64,000 nt of DNA, taken from the NCBI GenBank assembly GCA_963792965.1, contig CAWBYW010000004.1, positions 64,001-128,000 of the forward strand. The letters run 5' to 3'. A program made the position numbers and the translations under genes. Positions 15,245-30,622 of this stretch are shown piece by piece. Origin of the DNA: an uncultured delta proteobacterium. GTDB lineage: Bacteria > Desulfobacterota > Zymogenia > Zymogenales > Zymogenaceae. The notes under the pieces are model-generated. The model ran no database searches and was not told the DNA's origin. It saw only the letters and a program-made list of their open reading frames with translations. How positions within the stretch are numbered: the stretch's first letter is position 1; each line of letters starts with the position of its first letter.

Positions 15245-15406
15245 TAGAGAGAGGGGGGAGGGGGCGTGTCTGTCCCCCGTATCCGGGGGAACGGCAAAGG
15301 GCCGCCGTCACCACGTCCGGCTCAACCGACCCTTCTCTTGAGTCAGGGGTTGGGGATAATAGTAAAAAGAGAGAAAAGGGGGTCACGTATCCGTTTATCT
15401 CTTATT

Positions 15407-16987: not shown

Positions 16988-17038
16988 AGGTCAAGAGGGA
17001 TCATAGATCAAGAGGGGTCACAGGTCAAGAGGGGTCAC
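16988..17038 (+). repeat. Three tandem copies of a 17-bp unit
   Basis: AGGTCAAGAGGGATCAT / AGATCAAGAGGGGTCAC / AGGTCAAGAGGGGTCAC. Confidence 0.85.
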
Positions 17039-17089
17039 GTTTTTTCTTGTCACTTCGGCGGCAGGAATATACATTCCTTTACCCCATGA

Positions 17090-18244: not shown

Positions 18245-19338
18245 TCAGCTCTTTCCCGCGTTCTTGGCCGCGACGTGGAAGCGGATGCTGAGGATATCCC
18301 CGTCCTCGACGATGTAGTCCTTCCCCTTCAGGTAGTACTTCCCGGCGTCCTTGACCCTCGCCTCGTCCTTGAGGGCGATGAGGTCGTCGTATTTCATGAC
18401 TTCGGCCCGGATGAAGCCCCGCTCGAGGTCCGAGTGGATGACGCCGGCAGCCTGTGGGGCCGATGCGCCGGTGCTTACCATCCACTGGCGCACCTCGTCG
18501 GTCCCCACGGTGAAAAACGACATGAGGTCAAGCGCCGCAAGGCAGCGCCGGGTCAGCGCGTCGACGGCGGGCTCCGCAATTCCGAGGGCCGCGAGGTACT
18601 CCCCCCGCTCGGCGTCGTCCTCCAGGCGCGCGATCTCGGCCTCGAGCTTTGCCGAGACGATCATGGTATCGATCCCGAGCGGCAGGTAGCGCTCCGTGAT
18701 GCCTCGATGTCCTTATTCTTGATGTCGCCCTCCGACACGTTGACGGCCAGGATCATCTCTTTCATCGTGATGAAGGGATAGCCGGCGAGGAGCTTCGTCT
18801 CCTCCTTGTCGAGCGTGAGGAGGCGGAGCGGCTGCTCGCCTTCCAGCTGCGACTTCAGCTTCAAAAGGACCTCGCGCTCCGCCGCGGCGGCCTTGTCGTT
18901 GGTCCTCTTGATGTTGTGCTCGATCCTCTCCAGCCGCTTTTCCACGAACAACAGGTCGTTGATGATGAGCTCGGCGTTGACCATGTCGATGTCGCGCGTG
19001 GGGTCGACCGAGCCCTCCACGTGGTAGACCGCGTCGTCGGCAAAGGCCCGAACGACGTGGCAGAGCGCGTCGGCATCACTGATGTCGGCAAAGACCTGGC
19101 CCTTTGCCATCGTCTCTTTCTCGAGCTTCGGAAGCACCTCGATGTCTATCCGCGCGCGGGTGGCCTTTTCGGGGTGGTAGAGGGAAACCAGCACGTCGAA
19201 GCGCGGGTCCTTTATCTCGGCAAGGCCCTTGATGGGCTTATTCTGCGCCAGCTCCTTCTCGGAGGGCGCGTGGTGGGTCAACAGCTCGAAGAGGGTCTTC
19301 TTGCCCGACTGGGGAAGCCCGATGATACCTACTTTCAT
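18245..19338 (-). CDS. ychF: Redox-regulated ATPase YchF (frameshifts near 18680-18700)
   Basis: GLPQSGK, DALCHVVRAF, FFTVG..EVRQW, AGVIHSDLERGFIRAEV, GKDYIVEDGD. Confidence 0.92.
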
Positions 19339-19684
19339 GGCGGCGGTGTCTCTCCATTCAAAAAAAAGTCTCGGCGCCCGATTGCGCGCAGAGGGTTATA
19401 TGATTGGTCGGCCTCGTGAGCAGACTGCCGACTTCCGATTTTGGTAGGCCCGAATGGGGACTCCGGGGAAGGTCGCTCCCCCTGACAAAATCGAGACGCG
19501 GAGGGTTGTTTATTATCGCTACTATGATATCAAGGAGAGAGTGAGGACATGCACAAGGAGAGAATGCGGGCAGGGGGCGCGGCGCCCCTTGACAGGCGAC
19601 GATACGGTTACCATTATAATAGAGAGGGATGAGATATTCACGGCACCGGCCGGTGTCCGGCCGGGGCAGGAAAGGAGGAGAGCC

Positions 19685-20149
19685 ATGAAAGATAAAAAGA
19701 TAGAGCAGGTTTACGAGATCTTCATCCGCACCACGCCGGAGACGCTCTGGCGGGCGCTGATCGAGGCCAAGTTCACGGAAAAATATTTCTTCGGCACGTC
19801 GGTAAAGACGACCGCCAAAAAGGGGGATCCCATCTCCTACACGATGGAGGATGGCAGACTCGCCGTGGACGGCGTGGTGTTAGAGGCGGTGCCGCCGAAG
19901 AGGCTCGTGCAGACATGGGTCGGGCATTACGATAAAAAGCTCGAAAAAGAGACATCCATCGTACGTTGGGAGATCGAGAAGCGGGATGACGTCTGCAAGC
20001 TGACCGTCACCCACGACCTGACGGACGCCCCGGTACTGGCGGGGCACGTCGGCATGGAGGGCTGGAGCGTGGTGCTCTCCGGCCTGAAGACGCTCTTGGA
20101 GACGGGCGAGCCGCTGGTCATCAAGATGGCCCATGAGAACGCGGCATAG
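19685..20149 (+). CDS. SRPBCC/AHSA1-domain protein
   Basis: YEIFIRTTPETLWRAL, PPKRLVQTW, CKLTVTH, GWSVVLSGLKTLLETG. Confidence 0.88.
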   Translation: MKDKKIEQVYEIFIRTTPETLWRALIEAKFTEKYFFGTSVKTTAKKGDPISYTMEDGRLAVDGVVLEAVPPKRLVQTWVGHYDKKLEKETSIVRWEIEKRDDVCKLTVTHDLTDAPVLAGHVGMEGWSVVLSGLKTLLETGEPLVIKMAHENAA

Positions 20150-20277
20150 GCTGGCGCGGCGCGGGGCCTGAAATTATCGGGGGTCGGATCTGCGCCCGAC
20201 GTTGATTCCTTCCCGGCGGAAGGAGCCTATCAACAAGTCCGGGCGCACCTTTGACCCCCTTCTTACTTTACGGGTCG

Positions 20278-20910
20278 TCAGCTCGCGGTCGCGGTGTTGT
20301 CGCGTGCGGCCTCGTCCTGCAGCCGCGCGGCCTCGCCTGTCAGCCGCGCCAGGTGGTCCCGGACGTCGCGGGGCCAGCGCGTCGATCAGGTCCTTCAGGC
20401 GGACGTAGTCCCCGGCGTAGAGCGCGCGGGAGGCCTCCTGGAACCCGGGGAGGTTTCCCCCCATGACCCACATGAACTTCCCCGCGGCGTCCCTGGCCAT
20501 CGCGCGCCCGCTCTTTGGGGCCGCCGAGCTTCCGGGCCTCGTCGACCAGCCGCCGTATCGCGGCCGACGCCCCGCCGGATTGCGCGCCGAGCCACTCCCA
20601 GTGGCGCGGCAGAAGCGAGACCTCCTTGCAGACCACGCCCAGGCTGGGGCGGCCCGGCCCGCTCTTCGGCCGGGGGACGGGCTTGTCCTCGGCAAAGAGG
20701 GGGTGGGAGGCGAGCCGAGCCAGGGCCTCTTCCGGCGTGCCCCGGAGGTCGAAATCGACCTGCCGATCCTGTCCGGTCCTCGAAGATAAGGATCGGCGCG
20801 GGCTCTCCGCTGTCGATTTGCTCCATCGTTTTTCGTATCGTCGTGTCAACGTCCCCCGAGGCGATAAGCCGCTCCCCGGCGAACGCCGTAAATGTCCGTT
20901 CGGTCTCCAT
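20278..20910 (-). CDS. DUF2239 family protein (several frameshifts)
   Basis: TAFAGERLIASG, LIFEDRTG, DFDLRG, GRPSLGVVCKEVSLLPRHWEWL, GNLPGFQEASRALY, WPRDVRDH pieced across frames. Confidence 0.85.
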
Positions 20911-20984
20911 CGGTAACTCCTCTCGTGTAGATCACGTTGTCATTCAAATCCAGCGGCGTCTCCGCGCCGCATGCCAATGGAGTA

Positions 20985-21026
20985 ATTATACCAGGGTAAA
21001 ATAGGTTTGTCAATACTACCCGGGTA
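20985..21026 (-). promoter_or_regulatory. Consensus sigma70 promoter of the DUF2239 gene with two palindromic boxes
   Basis: Minus strand TTGACA (21013-21008)-N17-TATAAT (20990-20985); TACCAGGGTA at 20989-20998 and TACCCGGGTA at 21017-21026. Confidence 0.85.
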
Positions 21027-21127
21027 AAAATAAGGGGAAAGGGAAGAATATTTCCGCAAAAGACCTCACGTGTGCAATGAATAGGAATGCGGTGTAGGCA
21101 GGCGCGGTGTGGTTTCTAAATGCGGCA

Positions 21128-21204
21128 GGGTCAAATCTACGCGTGGTGCTGGTCACTCCCTGACGGAAGAACCGTATTAATAAGGCCAGCGTAGGTTTGA
21201 TCCC
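21128..21204. repeat. Long imperfect palindrome, copy 1
   Basis: GGGTCAAATCTACGCgTGGT...GCCAGCGTAGGTTTGATCC; 51/70 identical without gaps to 21669-21740. Confidence 0.8.
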
Positions 21205-21667
21205 GAGACCCAAGGCGTTTTCTAACTAACTTGAAATCTGGCTCGTGGCCGTCTTTAGGTTTTCCGTACCCAATCGCCATGAAAATTATGTATGCCGACC
21301 ACGCCAAGCTTACGGAAACAAAAATACACCAGAAACACACGTAGCAGCTATACGATATAAGTCTAATCCACAACTCACCGATGCACCAAAATATGAAAAG
21401 ATACGGATACCACTGCAAGAGACCTTTGCGAATCTTTCCCTTAGGGCCTTCCTGATATCTCAGTTGCCTAAAGCTTGCCGCGAAATAGACCGTTGATCCC
21501 GAAAGAATAAGCCCGAATAAACTTAGCCATATATCTGGATGTGAGTTTACGTATGTGAAGAATACGCCAATGGCAGTGAGGAATATCGTGGTAGTTGTCC
21601 ACAGAAGGGTATCGTAGTGTCTTGCCCAATCTTCTTTTGTCATTCTATACCGATTTGATAGTCCCAA
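21137..21667 (-). CDS. Hypothetical membrane protein, low GC
   Basis: About 4 hydrophobic segments (WARHYDTLLWTTTTIFL...); lies between the two palindrome copies. Confidence 0.6.
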   Translation of the reverse strand: MGLSNRYRMTKEDWARHYDTLLWTTTTIFLTAIGVFFTYVNSHPDIWLSLFGLILSGSTVYFAASFRQLRYQEGPKGKIRKGLLQWYPYLFIFWCIGELWIRLISYSCYVCFWCIFVSVSLAWSAYIIFMAIGYGKPKDGHEPDFKLVRKRLGSRDQTYAGLINTVLPSGSDQHHA

Positions 21668-21668
21668 A

Positions 21669-21740
21669 GTTAAATCTACGCGTGACGTTAGCCCCCTCCG
21701 GGCGAAAGAAATGTATTAGTAAGTCGAGCCTAGGTTTGGC
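21669..21740. repeat. Long imperfect palindrome, copy 2
   Basis: GTTAAATCTACGCGTGAC...GTCGAGCCTAGGTTTGGC. Confidence 0.8.
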
Positions 21741-21763
21741 CACTTAACCTTACAGCTTATAGG

Positions 21764-22054
21764 TTAGCCCTTAACAGCCTGTAGGGCAATCATAAAGGTC
21801 CCAAATCCCGTTAAAAGTAATATTGGAACCATGGAATAGCTATCCGGCGATTTTCCTGATCCTAGGACTCCAATAAAACCAGAAATCGCTGCACCTAAGA
21901 ACACCACCAAGCACACCGATATATTTTGTCCAGCGTTTTGCCGGCAGGCAGAATTTGTTAACATGATCAACATGAAGTTCTGAGACTTGCTCGAGCCCAT
22001 GTCTCTTTGAAAGCTTATACGATTCAAAATGAAAGGTCCGATATTTATCTTCAA
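21764..22054 (-). CDS. Hypothetical small membrane protein, low GC
   Basis: 96-aa ORF with two hydrophobic segments and a GAGG RBS. Confidence 0.4.
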   Translation of the reverse strand: MKINIGPFILNRISFQRDMGSSKSQNFMLIMLTNSACRQNAGQNISVCLVVFLGAAISGFIGVLGSGKSPDSYSMVPILLLTGFGTFMIALQAVKG

Positions 22055-22152
22055 ATACCTCTTTAAGGCTCTAAATGCCTTTGGGCTAAAGCAGGGTGTT
22101 TTATATTCTTGAGTTGGCCGTCAACCGATTCGAAGTTTCTTTTAGAACCACT

Positions 22153-22419
22153 TCATTTATCTTGTTTGTCATTTCCATCTCCTTCTTTCGTTAACCCCGC
22201 ATCAGTATTCACTACGTTCTGTATACCATTATCTTGTCTTGGTCTGCGTGGATTTATCGGGCTGGAATCCAGAGCTTGTAAAAATGCGGAGCTTATATCT
22301 TCGCTTAATAAATATATAGTAGACTTTCTCCTGCTAAATAAGTGCCTTACCCTAATCCCCACATATTTGACTAAATTTGAGTATTTTTTAACATGTTTAA
22401 CTGTTATAAATCTGTGCAT
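22153..22419 (-). CDS. Hypothetical protein, low GC
   Basis: 88-aa ORF with an AAGGAAAG RBS-like sequence; no recognisable motif. Confidence 0.3.
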   Translation of the reverse strand: MHRFITVKHVKKYSNLVKYVGIRVRHLFSRRKSTIYLLSEDISSAFLQALDSSPINPRRPRQDNGIQNVVNTDAGLTKEGDGNDKQDK

Positions 22420-22696
22420 GCTCTTTCCTTAGAAAAAAGGTTACCATACTATTTATGAATTACCATTTGTATCGTTGCCAATTATCTTATATTCTGTATC
22501 ATATATTAATTATAAAAACAAACAAAAAGCATTTTCGAAAGGTGGAATTTCATACCTTAAGAAGCTGACTATATGCTCGAAATCCGGAGGAGTTAAAATC
22601 CACGCTTGGTGTTAATCGCTTCTTGACGAAAGAAATATACTAAATAAAGTCAAGCGTGGAATCTAACCAGTCAAAAAAGGAGATGTAAGGAAATGG

Positions 22697-24197
22697 CTAA
22701 AAGAGCGGCCGTTGCACGATCGAAGAGGTCCTGGTTATGCCGCTTAAACAGTCTTCTACTGGCCTAATTGTACTCCTTCCCTCCTCTTCCGACAAAACCG
22801 ATGCAACCCAACAACAGCAGAGACCTTCCCAAAGGGTATCGCTACTTATTACGAGCTTTTGGCAACAAGACGAATCCATCCCTTATGGTCACTATAGGTG
22901 GTAGCTCGCTTACACGAATCAGCTACTTCCGTGTGCGTTCTACCAATGCGCTCGGCGACGCCCGACCATTCTTTTTTCTCAAGGCCAGAAAAGACAACTC
23001 TTTCTGGAGCGTCGTCTCCCGGCAACACATTGCAGCCAATCGTGGGTTCTTGGTCCCCGTCTAAGAAAACACAAGAAGGGCGCGGGAAACGATTTTCGTT
23101 AACCATCTGTCCTAAAGAGCATCCTACTTGTGCCGAACCGTACGGTATGAATTTACATCGTAGCACTGAATCTCTGCCATACTTATAGAGTATTTCTTTT
23201 AGAAGTGTTGCTGCTATAGGGTCTTCAACATAGACATCACATTCTGGATGTTTTTCTTCATCCATCATTGTCATCGCAAACTCAGGGCTTACTTCCCGGA
23301 CTATCGTCTTTGATCTATAGTTAACCGTCGAATCATTGATTATGTATAGTCTGCCATTTAACGGTAATTCTTCAAGTATATATGGCAAATGGGTAGTGAG
23401 AATAATTTGTAGGTCGAGCTGCGACATTTTTCCGCCAAATCCCTTATCAGTCGTCTTTGCGCTCTGGGGTGCAAGGAAGATTCCGATTTCATCAATCAAA
23501 ATAAGGCTGTACTTTTCTGGTTCCACCTGTAAGAGCTCCGCAACGGTTATTTCTCCCGCGCCTTGATGGAATCCGGAATAATGTCTTTCCTCCTGTTGTC
23601 CGAGGACAGGAACTCTTCTGTGTGCATCGAGATTAGTTTAAAGCCATATGTGCGGATTCATATTTCCTACCAACTATGTTCGATAATCTGTCCAAAACGG
23701 TCTTTTCAAAATTATTGGTTTCAGTTTCCTTCAATAACGGGTTCGCGAGCCTGCGATAGCCGGTTCTCGCGGAAACCGGCTGAATTCGACTCAAAGTCAA
23801 TGTACTCAACATGCCTTTCCGGTCGCTCCGGATTTCCCCGCCATCGGTCAGTTGGTTGCCCTTGATCGTCCTAATATCCGAATTCTTACCCTGCCAGTAC
23901 GAAAATTTTATGTTAATGTTTTGCAGAGTATCCCACGGAGTATCCGGAAAATAGTCCGAGGCGAATCGATTCACCCCCGGCGACTTATACACAGACGCAG
24001 CGCACTGGAGAATGGTACTTTTCCGGAACCGTTCTCTCCAATAAGGGCGACTATAGGGAATTGAAACTCAATTTTTTCGCCGCACCAGCCCCTAAGCCCG
24101 TCGATCTCAATCCATTCGAGGAATTGCGGCCAACCATTACCACCACCTCGAGTACTCCATTTGTTACTAGTTTTCTTACTTCACTGCTTAACGCCAT
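22697..24197 (-). pseudogene. OLD-like ABC ATPase/TOPRIM nuclease, multiply frameshifted
   Basis: Fragments MALSSEVRKL, FPIVALIGENGSGKSTILQ (Walker A), LILIDEI (Walker B), LTTH, VYVED...FLDGD (TOPRIM-like). Confidence 0.7.
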
Positions 24198-24450
24198 CTC
24201 AGACCTCACTGATGAGCCGGGGCATACCGGATCCAATAGGGTGTTAAAGACACTGCGAAGTGTGTTTAATACTTACAATAATGGTGCTATCATAGCATAA
24301 TACCGGTTCAAAGTCAAGTATAAAGCCACAGCTAAAATTGCGTTCGTACAAGTACGGTGCCCTCTTATGAGTAGGGGAGGGATTAATGCGCCAGGTTTGC
24401 TTACAATAAGGATGGATAAGAGTAAGATCAACCCGTAAAGCTACCCGTGT

Positions 24451-24580
24451 CTACACTTCCGGGTCGGTTTTCGACACCACCTGCCGGTAGTCGATGAACT
24501 CCACGGGCGCCAGGCACTCGGGGTAGAGCACGCCGGCGAACTTCTTGACCTCGGGCGATTCGGGGTGGATTCGATGGGCG
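24451..24580 (-). pseudogene. Orphan coding fragment at the edge of the low-GC islet
   Basis: HPESPEVKKFAGVLYPECLAPVEFIDYRQVV with host-like codons and no start codon. Confidence 0.45.
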
Positions 24581-24600
24581 CGGACCGGCGGGGGCGGGAG

Positions 24601-25215: not shown

Positions 25216-25370
25216 GGCTTGTGCCTCCGCGTGCGCGTGTTTCGTGGTATTTTACACGAAACGGGGGCGAATACAACCTATTTCATCTCCGCCCGTCACC
25301 GGGCCCCGTGGGGCCGGGAGCCAACGGCGGCCGGGCATACGCCGGGCGGTCGTTATCAGTGCCCCTTCTT

Positions 25371-25438
25371 CTTTTCCCTTGCCTTTTGTTCCGCCGATCC
25401 GCTACACTGCTTCGGAGATGATACCCATGAGGAATAGA
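25371..25438 (+). promoter_or_regulatory. Repeated promoter module, copy 1
   Basis: CTTTTCCC-TTGCCT-N18-TACACT; similarity to 26333-26400 extends into the first codons. Confidence 0.7.
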
Positions 25439-25518
25439 GCCAAGGGGTCACGTCTCCGTCTAATAACTCGTCACGTGTCAACACTCTTAGTGCCGGGGAC
25501 AGCTAAAGGGGAGGATAT

Positions 25519-26255: not shown

Positions 26256-26332
26256 GCGTTTGGGTTTGAGGAAGAATAGACACTCAGAAGAGAGCGAGTC
26301 TTCGTCAAACTTCTATTACCTTAAGCCGCTTT

Positions 26333-26400
26333 CTTTTCCCTTGCCTTTTGTTCCCCGTATCCGCTACACTGCCTCCGAGATGAAACTCAAGACGAATAGA
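26333..26400 (+). promoter_or_regulatory. Repeated promoter module, copy 2
   Basis: TTGCCT (26341)-N18-TACACT (26365). Confidence 0.7.
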
Positions 26401-26835: not shown

Positions 26836-26907
26836 TTAAGGCAAGATCTCCTTTTTGGTAACGGAGAGGTATCTCGTCTCATGGCAGAACAGCAGCTTTC
26901 CGATAAG
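26836..26907 (-). pseudogene. Orphan gene 3' end, copy A
   Basis: LIGKLLFCHETRYLSVTKKEILP*; near-duplicate of 27812-27883. Confidence 0.65.
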
Positions 26908-26988: not shown

Positions 26989-27699
26989 TCAAGCTTCCGG
27001 CAATACCTCGAAGGTCTTGACGACGTTTTCCGTGCTAATGGAAATGCCCCACCCCGCGAATTTATCTATAACGGCCTGATAGCTTTCCTGGTAGTAGGTC
27101 GTGGTGGCGTCGGAGACCACGTTGGCGAAGTATCCTAAATCCAAAGCCACCCGGACGGTCGTATCGATGCATTCATCTGTCACGAACCCGGCGATATAGA
27201 GGACCTTAATTCCCATGTGATCCAGAACGCGGTCGAGAATGGTGCCCGTAAAGGCCCCGCTGACCGTCTTGGTAAGCACGATCTCCCCCGGGTTCGGCTT
27301 ACATTCGTCCAGAAAGCGGGACGCCTCGTTTCCCGGCGGAAGGATCCACTGTACAAGCTTATGGGCGAGACCGGCGTCACGGCCGTCCCCCGAGAGGGCC
27401 TCTATCTTGACGTGAATCGGGGGGATTCCATTTGCCCTGGCGGCGGCTAATAGCTTTTCGCAGGCGCCGAGGGCGGCATAAAAGCGGTGCCGGTAATCCG
27501 CGAGCGCCTCGTTCACCTCTCCCTCGGCCAGCCCTTTCGCTATGGCTTTCTTGGCTAGATGTTCGGGCGTTGCCAGACCCTGGATGTCGATCAGCAACAG
27601 GGCGGTGTTTTTCTTTGTCGGTGCGGGAAGGTACTGCAGGCCTTTTTCCGTAATTGTGTACGATGCGGCCATCACATCGGCCATGGTGACTTTACCCAT
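26989..27699 (-). CDS. Isochorismatase/cysteine hydrolase family protein
   Basis: Catalytic triad motifs LLLIDIQ, LTKTVSGAF, TDECIDTT. Confidence 0.9.
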   Translation of the reverse strand: MGKVTMADVMAASYTITEKGLQYLPAPTKKNTALLLIDIQGLATPEHLAKKAIAKGLAEGEVNEALADYRHRFYAALGACEKLLAAARANGIPPIHVKIEALSGDGRDAGLAHKLVQWILPPGNEASRFLDECKPNPGEIVLTKTVSGAFTGTILDRVLDHMGIKVLYIAGFVTDECIDTTVRVALDLGYFANVVSDATTTYYQESYQAVIDKFAGWGISISTENVVKTFEVLPEA

Positions 27700-27726
27700 T
27701 GTCCTCCTCCTTGGATATACAGAATT

Positions 27727-27800
27727 AAGGTGATACCATACCTTTAATTATGATCTTGAAACGTAGAAATGACAATTACAATTACGTATGGTGTCCCCTT
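27727..27800. repeat. MITE/REP-like element with GGGGACACCATAC-type inverted ends
   Basis: AAGGTGATACCATACCTTTAATT ... AATTACGTATGGTGTCCCCTT. Confidence 0.65.
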
Positions 27801-27811
27801 AGTTCCCGCCG

Positions 27812-27883
27812 TTAAGGAAGAATCTCCTTTTTGGTAACGTAGAGGTATCTCGTCTCATAGTAGAGTAGCAACCCTCCGATGGC
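27812..27883 (-). pseudogene. Orphan gene 3' end, copy B
   Basis: AIGGLLLYYETRYLYVTKKEILP*. Confidence 0.65.
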
Positions 27884-30286: not shown

Positions 30287-30330
30287 CTTTTCCCCTTGCC
30301 ATTCACGTCTGAATTCGCTACACTTTCCGC
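30287..30330 (+). promoter_or_regulatory. Repeated promoter module, copy 3
   Basis: TTGCCA (30296)-N17-TACACT (30319). Confidence 0.65.
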
Positions 30331-30359
30331 AATAGGGCGGACGCCGGGCCGCCCGGACG

Positions 30360-30622
30360 TCAGGCCTCATCTCGTTGGTCACGGTGGGACGGGGCGAGCG
30401 CCGTGCCCGGCCGATAGAGAGCGGGGCCAGGGCCCAGGATGCCGCGGCGGTGATCCACGCCGACCTCGCCCGGAGGTTCATCCGGGCGGAGGGCGTGTCG
30501 TACCACGATTTCGTCTCCGACGGGGGCTTTGCCGAGTGCAAGAAGCGGGGGATCTTTCGGCTCGGGGGAAGGGCTGCGTCGTCAAGGACGGCGACATCCT
30601 CTCGATCAAGGCGGGCTTTTGA
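30360..30622 (+). pseudogene. Degenerate C-terminal fragment of a ychF paralogue
   Basis: TVG..E.RA.PI..GA.A.DAAAVIHADLARRFIRAE...VVKDGDILSIK with no N-terminal half. Confidence 0.75.

Follow-up and report, generated by a model that had tools for sequence, protein, structure and literature searches.

Four co-oriented hairpins in a Zymogenaceae contig are probably decayed terminal-repeat dimers of a TIRYT-type transposase unit

We analyzed a 64,000-nucleotide stretch of DNA from an uncultured delta proteobacterium of the family Zymogenaceae (GenBank assembly GCA_963792965.1, contig CAWBYW010000004.1, positions 64,001 to 128,000 of the forward strand), called the window below and numbered from its first letter. 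The window carries a family of four hairpins, c0 to c3, that lie largely between genes. These hairpins are probably decayed dimers of the terminal inverted repeats (TIRs) of a Y1 HUH transposase unit of the TIRYT type, also classified as group 1 of the REP-associated tyrosine transposases (RAYTs; REP, repetitive extragenic palindromic) and as TnpA_Y1 subclass 2.1. The register shared with transposase end-repeats, a 14-nt identical block, and covariance model scores all point to this link.

The original prediction described two direct copies 539 bp apart with 51 of 70 positions identical. This pair is real, and we count 52 identical positions of 70 in an ungapped comparison of 21130-21199 with 21669-21738. 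It is not the whole family, as repeat finding over 15-30 kb of the window added two more copies in the same orientation, giving four imperfect hairpins of ~80 nt, all co-oriented on the + strand. Hairpin c0 (20178..20262; GC 0.65) has a near-perfect long stem and lies between convergent AHSA1-like (+) and DUF2239 (-) genes. Hairpin c1 (21125..21209; GC 0.54) is the first copy of the predicted pair and sits at the joint of family-native, GC-rich DNA and an AT-rich block. The second copy of the pair, c2 (21664..21748; GC 0.48), has the most decayed stem of the four, and c3 occupies 22588..22672 with a GC of 0.38. Start-to-start spacings are 947 bp for c0-c1, 539 bp for c1-c2, and 924 bp for c2-c3, and pairwise identity among the copies is only 52-72%. 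Each hairpin lies just 3' of a minus-strand gene. The sole overlap with an open reading frame (ORF) is at c1, which is entered by a 24-codon ORF tail.

A covariance model, R1, with 84 positions and 31 pairs was built from c0-c3 alone and scores these copies at 85.9, 82.4, 78.5, and 76.8 bits, respectively. The window's own assembly (G000; 3.36 Mb, 42 contigs, 88.85% complete) yielded no fifth copy to either R1 or an nhmmer profile, and the window searched with filters off again returned only c0-c3. A blastn search of plasmid and phage collections at distant sensitivity gave no match to 21100-24450.

The hairpin is clearly a property of the whole four-copy family. In the four-copy alignment, standard pairs fill 82.3% of pair cells; shifting the 3' partner by one to three columns lowers this share to 28-43%. 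Pairs changed on both sides make up 6 of 31, a count reached by 15 of 500 shuffles, and the covariation score of 0.344 was reached by 4 of 500; coming from only four related sequences, this covariation is modest evidence. Bulges consist of one unpaired base in the 5' arm (alignment column 19) and of 2 and 4 nt in the 3' arm. Single-base bulges could partly be assembly indel errors, since the ychF, DUF2239, and ATPase-like genes all appear frameshifted within ~6 kb. In c0, 27 of the 31 R1 pairs are Watson-Crick. Folded as single-stranded DNA (ssDNA), the + strand of c0 reaches -26.4 kcal/mol (z -6.08) and that of c1 -15.2 kcal/mol (z -3.26; one of 200 shuffles was as good), which bears out the long stem first claimed for c1. 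For c3, the values are -12.3 kcal/mol (z -3.86) on the + strand and -11.3 kcal/mol (z -3.72) on the - strand. With DNA parameters, c2 forms the long stem on neither strand (-6.7 and -7.1 kcal/mol; z 0.00 and 0.15); with RNA parameters, its + strand does form it (-22.5 versus -14.1 kcal/mol on the - strand). The earlier statement that this copy keeps its stem is thus only partly right: the change from TGGT/GCCA to TGAC/GTCG between c1 and c2 is truly compensatory and the + strand RNA folds, but the DNA-parameter fold lacks the long stem, which is weaker than described. RNA folding favors the - strand for c3 (-24.9 versus -20.7 kcal/mol on the + strand) and is equal on both strands for c0.

Strand-specific folding had been proposed from an excess of G-T pairs on the plus strand. 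That excess exists in the outer helix, where non-Watson-Crick cells comprise 17 G-T, 5 A-C, and 7 others (13 G-T versus 3 A-C in c1 and c2 alone), but the inner helix is biased the other way (1 G-T, 8 A-C), and both helices together come to 18 G-T versus 13 A-C. GC skew over the window is mostly positive (cumulative +1.74), which would presumably make the + strand the lagging-strand template; such a placement would weakly fit an ssDNA-dependent element.

R1 was run over G000 and 60 relatives, and the sole other genome matched was G048, a 6.5-Mb genome of the same phylum that belongs to another family and a distant genus, with 13 matches at E 4.5e-9 to 1.2e-7. The nine matches that were cut out are near-perfect palindromes of 71-74 nt with variable loops, and their arms begin GGGGTCAARTCTACG and continue with TTTGACGTT. 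The 5' arm of c1 carries a 14-nt terminal block identical to the G048 end-repeat at the same terminal position, and the TGACGTT that follows the terminal block in G048 arms is common to c0 and c2. A 20-mer count in G048 gave 84 occurrences (52 forward and 32 reverse) and none for the reversed control. The repeat is present as singles and doublets, many copies being single arms. In one cluster, at least six of seven copies lie between housekeeping ORFs, the neighbors being Sua5/YrdC, PurD-PurE, a hydrolase, a VWA protein, an M48 peptidase, and a histidine kinase. Given such singles between housekeeping genes, we rejected the ends of a large element, whether an insertion sequence (IS) or Tn3-type inverted repeats; CRISPR or tandem arrays were rejected on the gene-sized, irregular spacings. 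The ten perfect doublets listed for G048 are at least 4.5 kb apart or on separate contigs. The G048 palindromes have identical arms, yet each has its own loop of ~13-17 nt, which is odd for copies of one master element. A tandem of three end-repeats, with periods of 31 and 70 nt, occupies G048:C40:475954-476074.

G048 also has the enzyme. Pfam Y1_Tnp matches number 22 in G048, 8 in its sister genome G365, and 0 in G000. On G048:C33, the ~30-mer repeat flanks a 336-aa ORF in inverted orientation. This ORF, the only one of the repeat-flanked Y1 genes scanned for families, contains two motifs, NHYHLL of the HUH type and YIHRNP. It matches NF047646 “REP-associated tyrosine transposase” (E 2.3e-18; 66.5 bits, below the 80-bit equivalog cut-off) and has a tail resembling the DnaA C-terminal domain. 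Two G048 palindromes were checked in G365. At both sites the flanks are adjacent in G365 and the palindrome is missing, with 17 and 36 nt of unrelated sequence at the joints; therefore, the unit is gained or lost as a whole.

Pattern searches gave no further carrier that could be confirmed. An 18-nt degenerate c1/c2 pattern hit 44 loci from many phyla in a genome contig collection, none of them with an R1 hairpin; a uniform model predicts more such matches, which we put down to chance. A phylum-wide pattern scan gave six single-match genomes, and R1 scored at none of the six loci. In metagenome contigs, a 37-nt degenerate pattern fitting all four copies hit five loci (two distinct sequences), none of which scores at the match, and a weak resemblance at one metagenome locus could not be confirmed.

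The same kind of end-repeat occurs in the window's own taxonomic family, where five of nine other genomes have a Y1_Tnp match, four of them above cut-off. The Y1 genes of G005 (C5) and G007 (C6), of 325 and 326 aa, are flanked by inverted repeats starting GGGGTCAARTCT, and in G009 (L124) a repeat with this start stands just upstream of the start of a Y1-type gene, the one side covered. This 12-nt terminal block recurs in units from no fewer than two taxonomic families of a single phylum. Alignment of the eight c0-c3 arms with seven gene-flanking repeats of ~30 nt puts all of them in one register, running from the terminal block through an nnCGTTTGAC-like stretch to a pyrimidine-rich inner end. 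Judged from this alignment, the apparently conserved hairpin interior would simply be the inner parts of two end-repeats, and each hairpin would consist of two full end-repeats set head to head. In relatives, the repeats start GGGGTCAA, 7 of 8 against the GGGGWSAS motif; c0 starts GGGGTCGG, c1 starts AGGGTCAA, and c2 and c3 are degenerate. The match of the arms to these repeats is in effect a match to a known IS end, the outcome that the original prediction had named as counting against its own proposal.

Solo end-repeats occur as well. A solo start of GGGGTCAARTCT lies ~40-55 nt upstream of the glmS start codon at a conserved position in G009:C2:31876 (L123) and G002:C10:133589 (L132). Solo end-repeat-like sequences starting GGGGTCACGT or GGGGTCAAGTCT are found in the window at 15379-15403, 17031-17055, and 25444-25468 (all +) and at G000:C37:1552-1579, and they resemble the TIRYT end-repeats of G007 and G005. 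The sequence at G000:C37:1552-1579 is the genome's best match to a profile of gene-flanking repeats (E 0.0045).

Taken as TIR dimers, the hairpins would have arisen as follows. The unit would be two ~30-nt TIRs standing head to head with almost nothing between them and folding into a long hairpin, that is, a non-autonomous element like a REPIN or a miniature inverted-repeat transposable element (MITE). Copies would have been made by a Y1 enzyme acting on ssDNA, as IS200/IS605 and REP-type Y1 enzymes do, a mechanism that we carry over from work on IS200/IS605 and on E. coli TnpA-REP (as reported in PMC3333891 and PMC3479197). The enzyme would since have been lost, or be missing from the assembly, and the copies would be immobile, drifting relics. 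Their place immediately beyond the 3' ends of minus-strand genes would reflect where such repeats are tolerated. For c0, a counterpart occupies the same site in another genus, and this copy may be retained as a 3'-end hairpin between convergent genes.

Several results weigh against this account. In G000, c2 and c1 are the top matches to a profile of the nine G048 palindromes but only at E 2.1-5.2, a profile of the seven gene-flanking TIRs reaches the c1 arm only at E 4.7, and part of what makes the R1 scores strong would be earned by any long hairpin. The GGGGWSAS start has degenerated: it is intact in c0, partial in c1, and lost in c2 and c3. No Y1 transposase was found in G000 by Pfam (0 Y1_Tnp matches) or by tblastn with the G048 protein, which gave DnaA only; that match, at G000:C16, is DnaA itself, reached through its C-terminal domain. 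As the assembly is 88.85% complete, the gene may be missing from it rather than lost. The four copies lie within 2.5 kb with none elsewhere, unlike the dispersed pattern of G048. Their divergence, with the low identities given above, goes along with a GC content (0.65, 0.54, 0.48, and 0.38) that tracks the flanking DNA, and simple decay of one element family in one genome does not explain this combination. Finally, the portions of the TIRYT literature drawn on here contain no biochemical work on these enzymes.

The genes around the hairpins are arranged, in minus-strand order, as a broken ATPase-like gene, c3, two short ORFs, c2, a membrane-protein gene, c1, a promoter, the DUF2239 gene, and c0. 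The AHSA1/SRPBCC-like gene (19454..20149, +; Pfam PF08327, 3.7e-19) ends 29 nt before c0 and has a homolog of 68% identity in G009, a genome of the same family. Between c0 and c1 lies the DUF2239 gene (20340..20910, -), family-native and read in two frames (a frameshift or an assembly error) with PF09998 in both. Its sigma-70-type consensus promoter (20985..21013, -) is TTGACA-17-TATAAT, matching 12/12 with TG. Upstream of the gene (window 20930-21060), a direct repeat TACC(A/C)GGGTAAAA occurs twice and is almost identical in G009 (L108 7680-7745); this repeat is probably an operator for a regulator.

The gene between c1 and c2 (21137..21643, -) encodes a small membrane protein of 168 aa, and it is the last 24 codons of this gene that run into c1. 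It had been called an orphan, which does not hold, as an exhaustive search of a representative library gave 91 distant relatives at E<=1e-3. The best of them, 128 aa long and 52% identical, covers query residues 1-127, and the relatives in general cover only about the first 127 of the 168 residues. A word-indexed search with the 168-aa protein returned only the protein itself, and none of 12 relatives scanned has a Pfam family above cut-off. Of 400 other genomes sampled within the phylum, one has a homolog. Two putative short ORFs from the ORF list (21764-22054 and 22153-22419, both -), without a Pfam or NCBIfam match, lie between c2 and c3. Right of c3, the ATPase-like gene (22849..24180, -) is spread over three frames (23971-24180, 23633-24067, and 22849-23637) and is either broken or affected by assembly errors. 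Its translations contain GENGSGK and LILIDE, which we take to be Walker-A-like and Walker-B-like motifs, but the gene has no Pfam match at E<=0.01.

Further left, ychF (18245-19338) is split into two ORFs that overlap at 18661-18664, an apparent frameshift. A diverged, frameshifted 3' ychF fragment (42% identity over 76 aa, E 1e-13) lies at 30342-30610 on the opposite strand, 11 kb off, at the far edge of the low-GC island. Apparent frameshifts thus number four in ~6 kb (ychF, DUF2239, and ATPase-like genes), a cluster that suggests assembly indel errors as much as pseudogenes.

In G009, the DUF2239 gene is present at 75-89% amino acid identity (tblastx) with the same operator-like direct repeat upstream, and two further island genes occur there in a different order. 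Hairpins of the c type were not found at the G009 DUF2239 gene. A strong hairpin (-26.9 kcal/mol, z -4.05) directly follows the AHSA1 gene of G009; R1 scores it at 18.8 bits (E 0.0037 in 28 kb), and it aligns with c0 through short identical blocks. As this weakly similar hairpin occupies the same site, c0 is probably old and retained in place, and it may act as a 3'-end hairpin.

This raises the alternative that all four are functional 3'-end hairpins (terminators, mRNA stabilizers, or protein-binding sites) under selection, their likeness to end-repeats being incidental or long exapted. We regard this as unlikely. All four do lie just downstream of minus-strand genes, c0 between convergent ones; the strong hairpin at the equivalent place after AHSA1 in G009 has a T-run behind it; and the stems are maintained through two-sided changes. 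REPs, too, lie mostly downstream of coding sequences, and transcription is plausible for many of them, according to the account in PMC3733652. However, none of the four copies has a T-run, none is among the four terminator-like sites of 19300-24600, and c2 barely folds. Furthermore, a general signal would be genome-wide rather than confined to one locus, and the arms are in register with end-repeats.

A second alternative is prompted by the base composition of the locus. The segments flanking the hairpins have GC contents of 0.647, 0.434, 0.373, and 0.457, with hairpin GC running parallel, and c1 lies exactly at a joint of family-native and foreign DNA. By tblastx, the AT-rich block at 21210-24430 is unmatched in the three related regions used for comparison (G009, G005, and G002). 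The remainder of the island, to ~30.3 kb, is also mosaic, and at its boundaries stand two further repeat families that are absent from the rest of the genome; a solo end-repeat is also found at island boundaries. The first family (25369-25438 and 26331-26400, 962 bp apart, with a weaker third copy near 30288) resembles a duplication of a promoter and gene start. The second (26836-26904 and 27812-27880, 976 bp apart) brackets an isochorismatase-family gene (26989-27699, -). Most island module boundaries carry a local repeat, if the four hairpins are included.

The island boundaries also carry, at 27722-27805 of the window, one hairpin whose arms start GAATTAAGG(G/T)GA and which belongs to a second Y1-associated family. 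Doublets of this family flank Y1 transposase genes of ~230 aa in G002 and G009 (L113, L114, and L117), three of its hairpins stand in tandem in G009 (L108 10989-11341), and about four more doublets are found on other contigs of G000 (C11:5341, C16:120813, and C9:43923) with no Y1 gene.

On such a locus, the hairpins could be cassette junctions, that is, working or former recombination joints that stack single-gene modules of different origin. A Y1 enzyme using the outer ends of neighboring dimers, or recombination between hairpins, would then form an ssDNA-transposase counterpart of an integron array. The uniform orientation and gene-sized spacing speak for this, as do the GC steps tracked by the hairpins, the position of c1 at the native/foreign joint, and the AT-rich block without counterparts. 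So do the rearrangement of the locus relative to G009, the rarity of the membrane-protein gene in the phylum, and the further repeat families confined to the island boundaries. On the other side, this is a single locus with four copies and no enzyme in the assembly, and c0 appears old and vertically inherited. The DUF2239 “cassette” is family-native, is without such hairpins in G009, and has its own promoter, given the 12/12 consensus at 20985..21013. The ten listed G048 doublets do not form gene-sized arrays, and at the one homolog locus of the membrane-protein gene, in G071, there is no such hairpin. We therefore consider cassette junctions an improbable explanation. The fuller version, in which the hairpins are joints of a gene-stacking locus instead of passive relics and modules of 65%, 43%, 37%, and 46% GC were captured successively at TIR-dimer hairpins through ssDNA intermediates of a Y1 HUH enzyme or through hairpin-to-hairpin recombination, strikes us as slightly less probable still. 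If each hairpin had travelled with its module, this would explain why hairpin GC tracks the neighboring DNA, and an integron-like cassette system would then have been built on a transposase family without demonstrated activity.

The original prediction compared the hairpins with ssDNA recombination sites analogous to attC. True integron attC sites, as in a cluster of attC sites without an integrase (CALIN), are already largely refuted, and we give them very little credence. The likeness is in the form: attC hairpins are imperfect, ~60-140 nt long, and placed in direct orientation between single genes, and their ssDNA fold is what matters. The hairpins here are imperfect, ~75-80 nt, and co-oriented, with one or two ORFs between them that are mostly antisense to the better-folding strand; they show some G-T excess on the strand antisense to the genes and a purine-rich GRAAGRA stretch in the + strand interior. 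The only sequence conserved in all attC sites, as stated in Nivina et al. 2016 (PMC5027507), is 5'-AAC-3' in the R box (RYYYAAC), paired with GTT (GTTRRRY). The + strand, running antisense to the genes, would be the bottom strand, and here AAC occurs in the 5' arm of none of the four copies. On the - strand, it occurs in two (c1 and c2) but without GTT in the opposite arm, so that the box pair is missing throughout. An attC site further has extrahelical bases near L'', an unpaired central spacer, and a variable terminal structure, set asymmetrically with respect to the AAC; with no such triplet, the bulges of c0-c3 have no reference point in this scheme. In G000, the best match to the integron integrase model TIGR02249 reaches 83.7 bits against a cut-off of 265, the matches being ordinary Xer-like recombinases on other contigs, and no integron integrase above cut-off is found in G048 or G365 either. 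One intervening gene has its own consensus promoter, and the hairpin arms appear homologous to Y1-transposase end-repeats. While attC itself falls away, the general idea of hairpins recognized as ssDNA seems near the truth, because arms that are end-repeats of RAYT-like Y1 HUH transposases would belong to an enzyme class that works on ssDNA hairpins.

The antisense structured RNA that had also been offered, transcribed from the + strand, is equally far-fetched and unsupported: the outer-helix G-T excess and the much better fold of c2 as + strand RNA are offset by the opposite bias of the inner helix, by c3 folding better on the - strand and c0 equally on both, by the lack of a matching + strand promoter before each copy, and by Rfam, which returned only a tRNA elsewhere in the whole window at the gathering threshold and nothing over 20000-22900 even at E<=1.

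Read as TIR dimers, the hairpins bring a candidate new attC-like site into a published but barely studied class, the TIRYT or RAYT group 1 end-repeats. They suggest that such repeats can persist as hairpin dimers in an assembly without the enzyme gene, and one copy (c0) seems to have stayed at one intergenic site in different genera. Quentin et al. 2018 (PMC6006769), in what they report on subclass 2.1, found no REP-like sequences near its genes. Loci such as those described here indicate that the end-repeats do spread as hairpins, and a first biochemical test of a TIRYT enzyme could use them as concrete substrates. Clustering at joints of DNA composition offers a small lead on a possible role of such hairpins in assembling variable loci.

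Among known systems, the ends of IS200/IS605 elements are two different sub-terminal hairpins, and no classical cut-and-paste terminal structure is needed. The hairpins described here would share with them Y1 HUH chemistry on ssDNA hairpins and a one-strand bias. However, a TIRYT unit has one long inverted pair instead of two different hairpins, and TIRYT activity is itself deduced by analogy. The use of sub-terminal hairpins and ssDNA circles by the Y1 enzyme is described in PMC6006769. The REPIN-RAYT system, as presented by Bertels & Rainey (PMC3337134), is closer, with two inverted units forming one long hairpin in a non-autonomous, extragenic element tied to a usually single-copy Y1 transposase. 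Unlike REPINs, the unit here is a ~30-nt end-repeat rather than a 20-40-nt palindrome tagged GTAG or CGTC, the copies number four rather than tens to hundreds, and there is no cognate enzyme. Neither classical REP tag is terminal in c0-c3, and a CGTAG lies inside an arm.

The closest system is the “TIRtron.” In the account of Di Nocera, De Gregorio & Rocco 2013 (PMC3733652), long TIRs flank RAYT-like genes, whose enzyme is named TIRYT; many of the TIRs share GGGGWSAS, and they form moderately abundant families that are single, dimeric, or grouped. The enzymes correspond to TnpA_Y1 subclass 2.1, long proteins with a Y---NP motif and, in group 2.1.2, a Bac_DnaA_C- or HTH-like tail, as classified in PMC6006769. 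They also correspond to RAYT group 1, which Bertels et al. 2017 (PMC5581495) present as the widest-spread, most IS-like group, with the greatest tendency to horizontal transfer and with flanking 16-mers that are modestly abundant. G000 differs in lacking the enzyme gene and in having four diverged copies at one locus over a wide range of identity and GC, and the sub-terminal part is nearest to the distant genus G048, not to the variants of its own family. The likenesses are that the arms start with a GGGGWSAS-like block (GGGGTCAA or GGGGTCGG), degenerate in c2 and c3, that the repeats are single, dimeric, or grouped at moderate copy numbers, and that in relatives they flank Y1 genes of ~325-336 aa with HUH and Y---NP motifs, the G048 gene ending in a DnaA-C-like tail.

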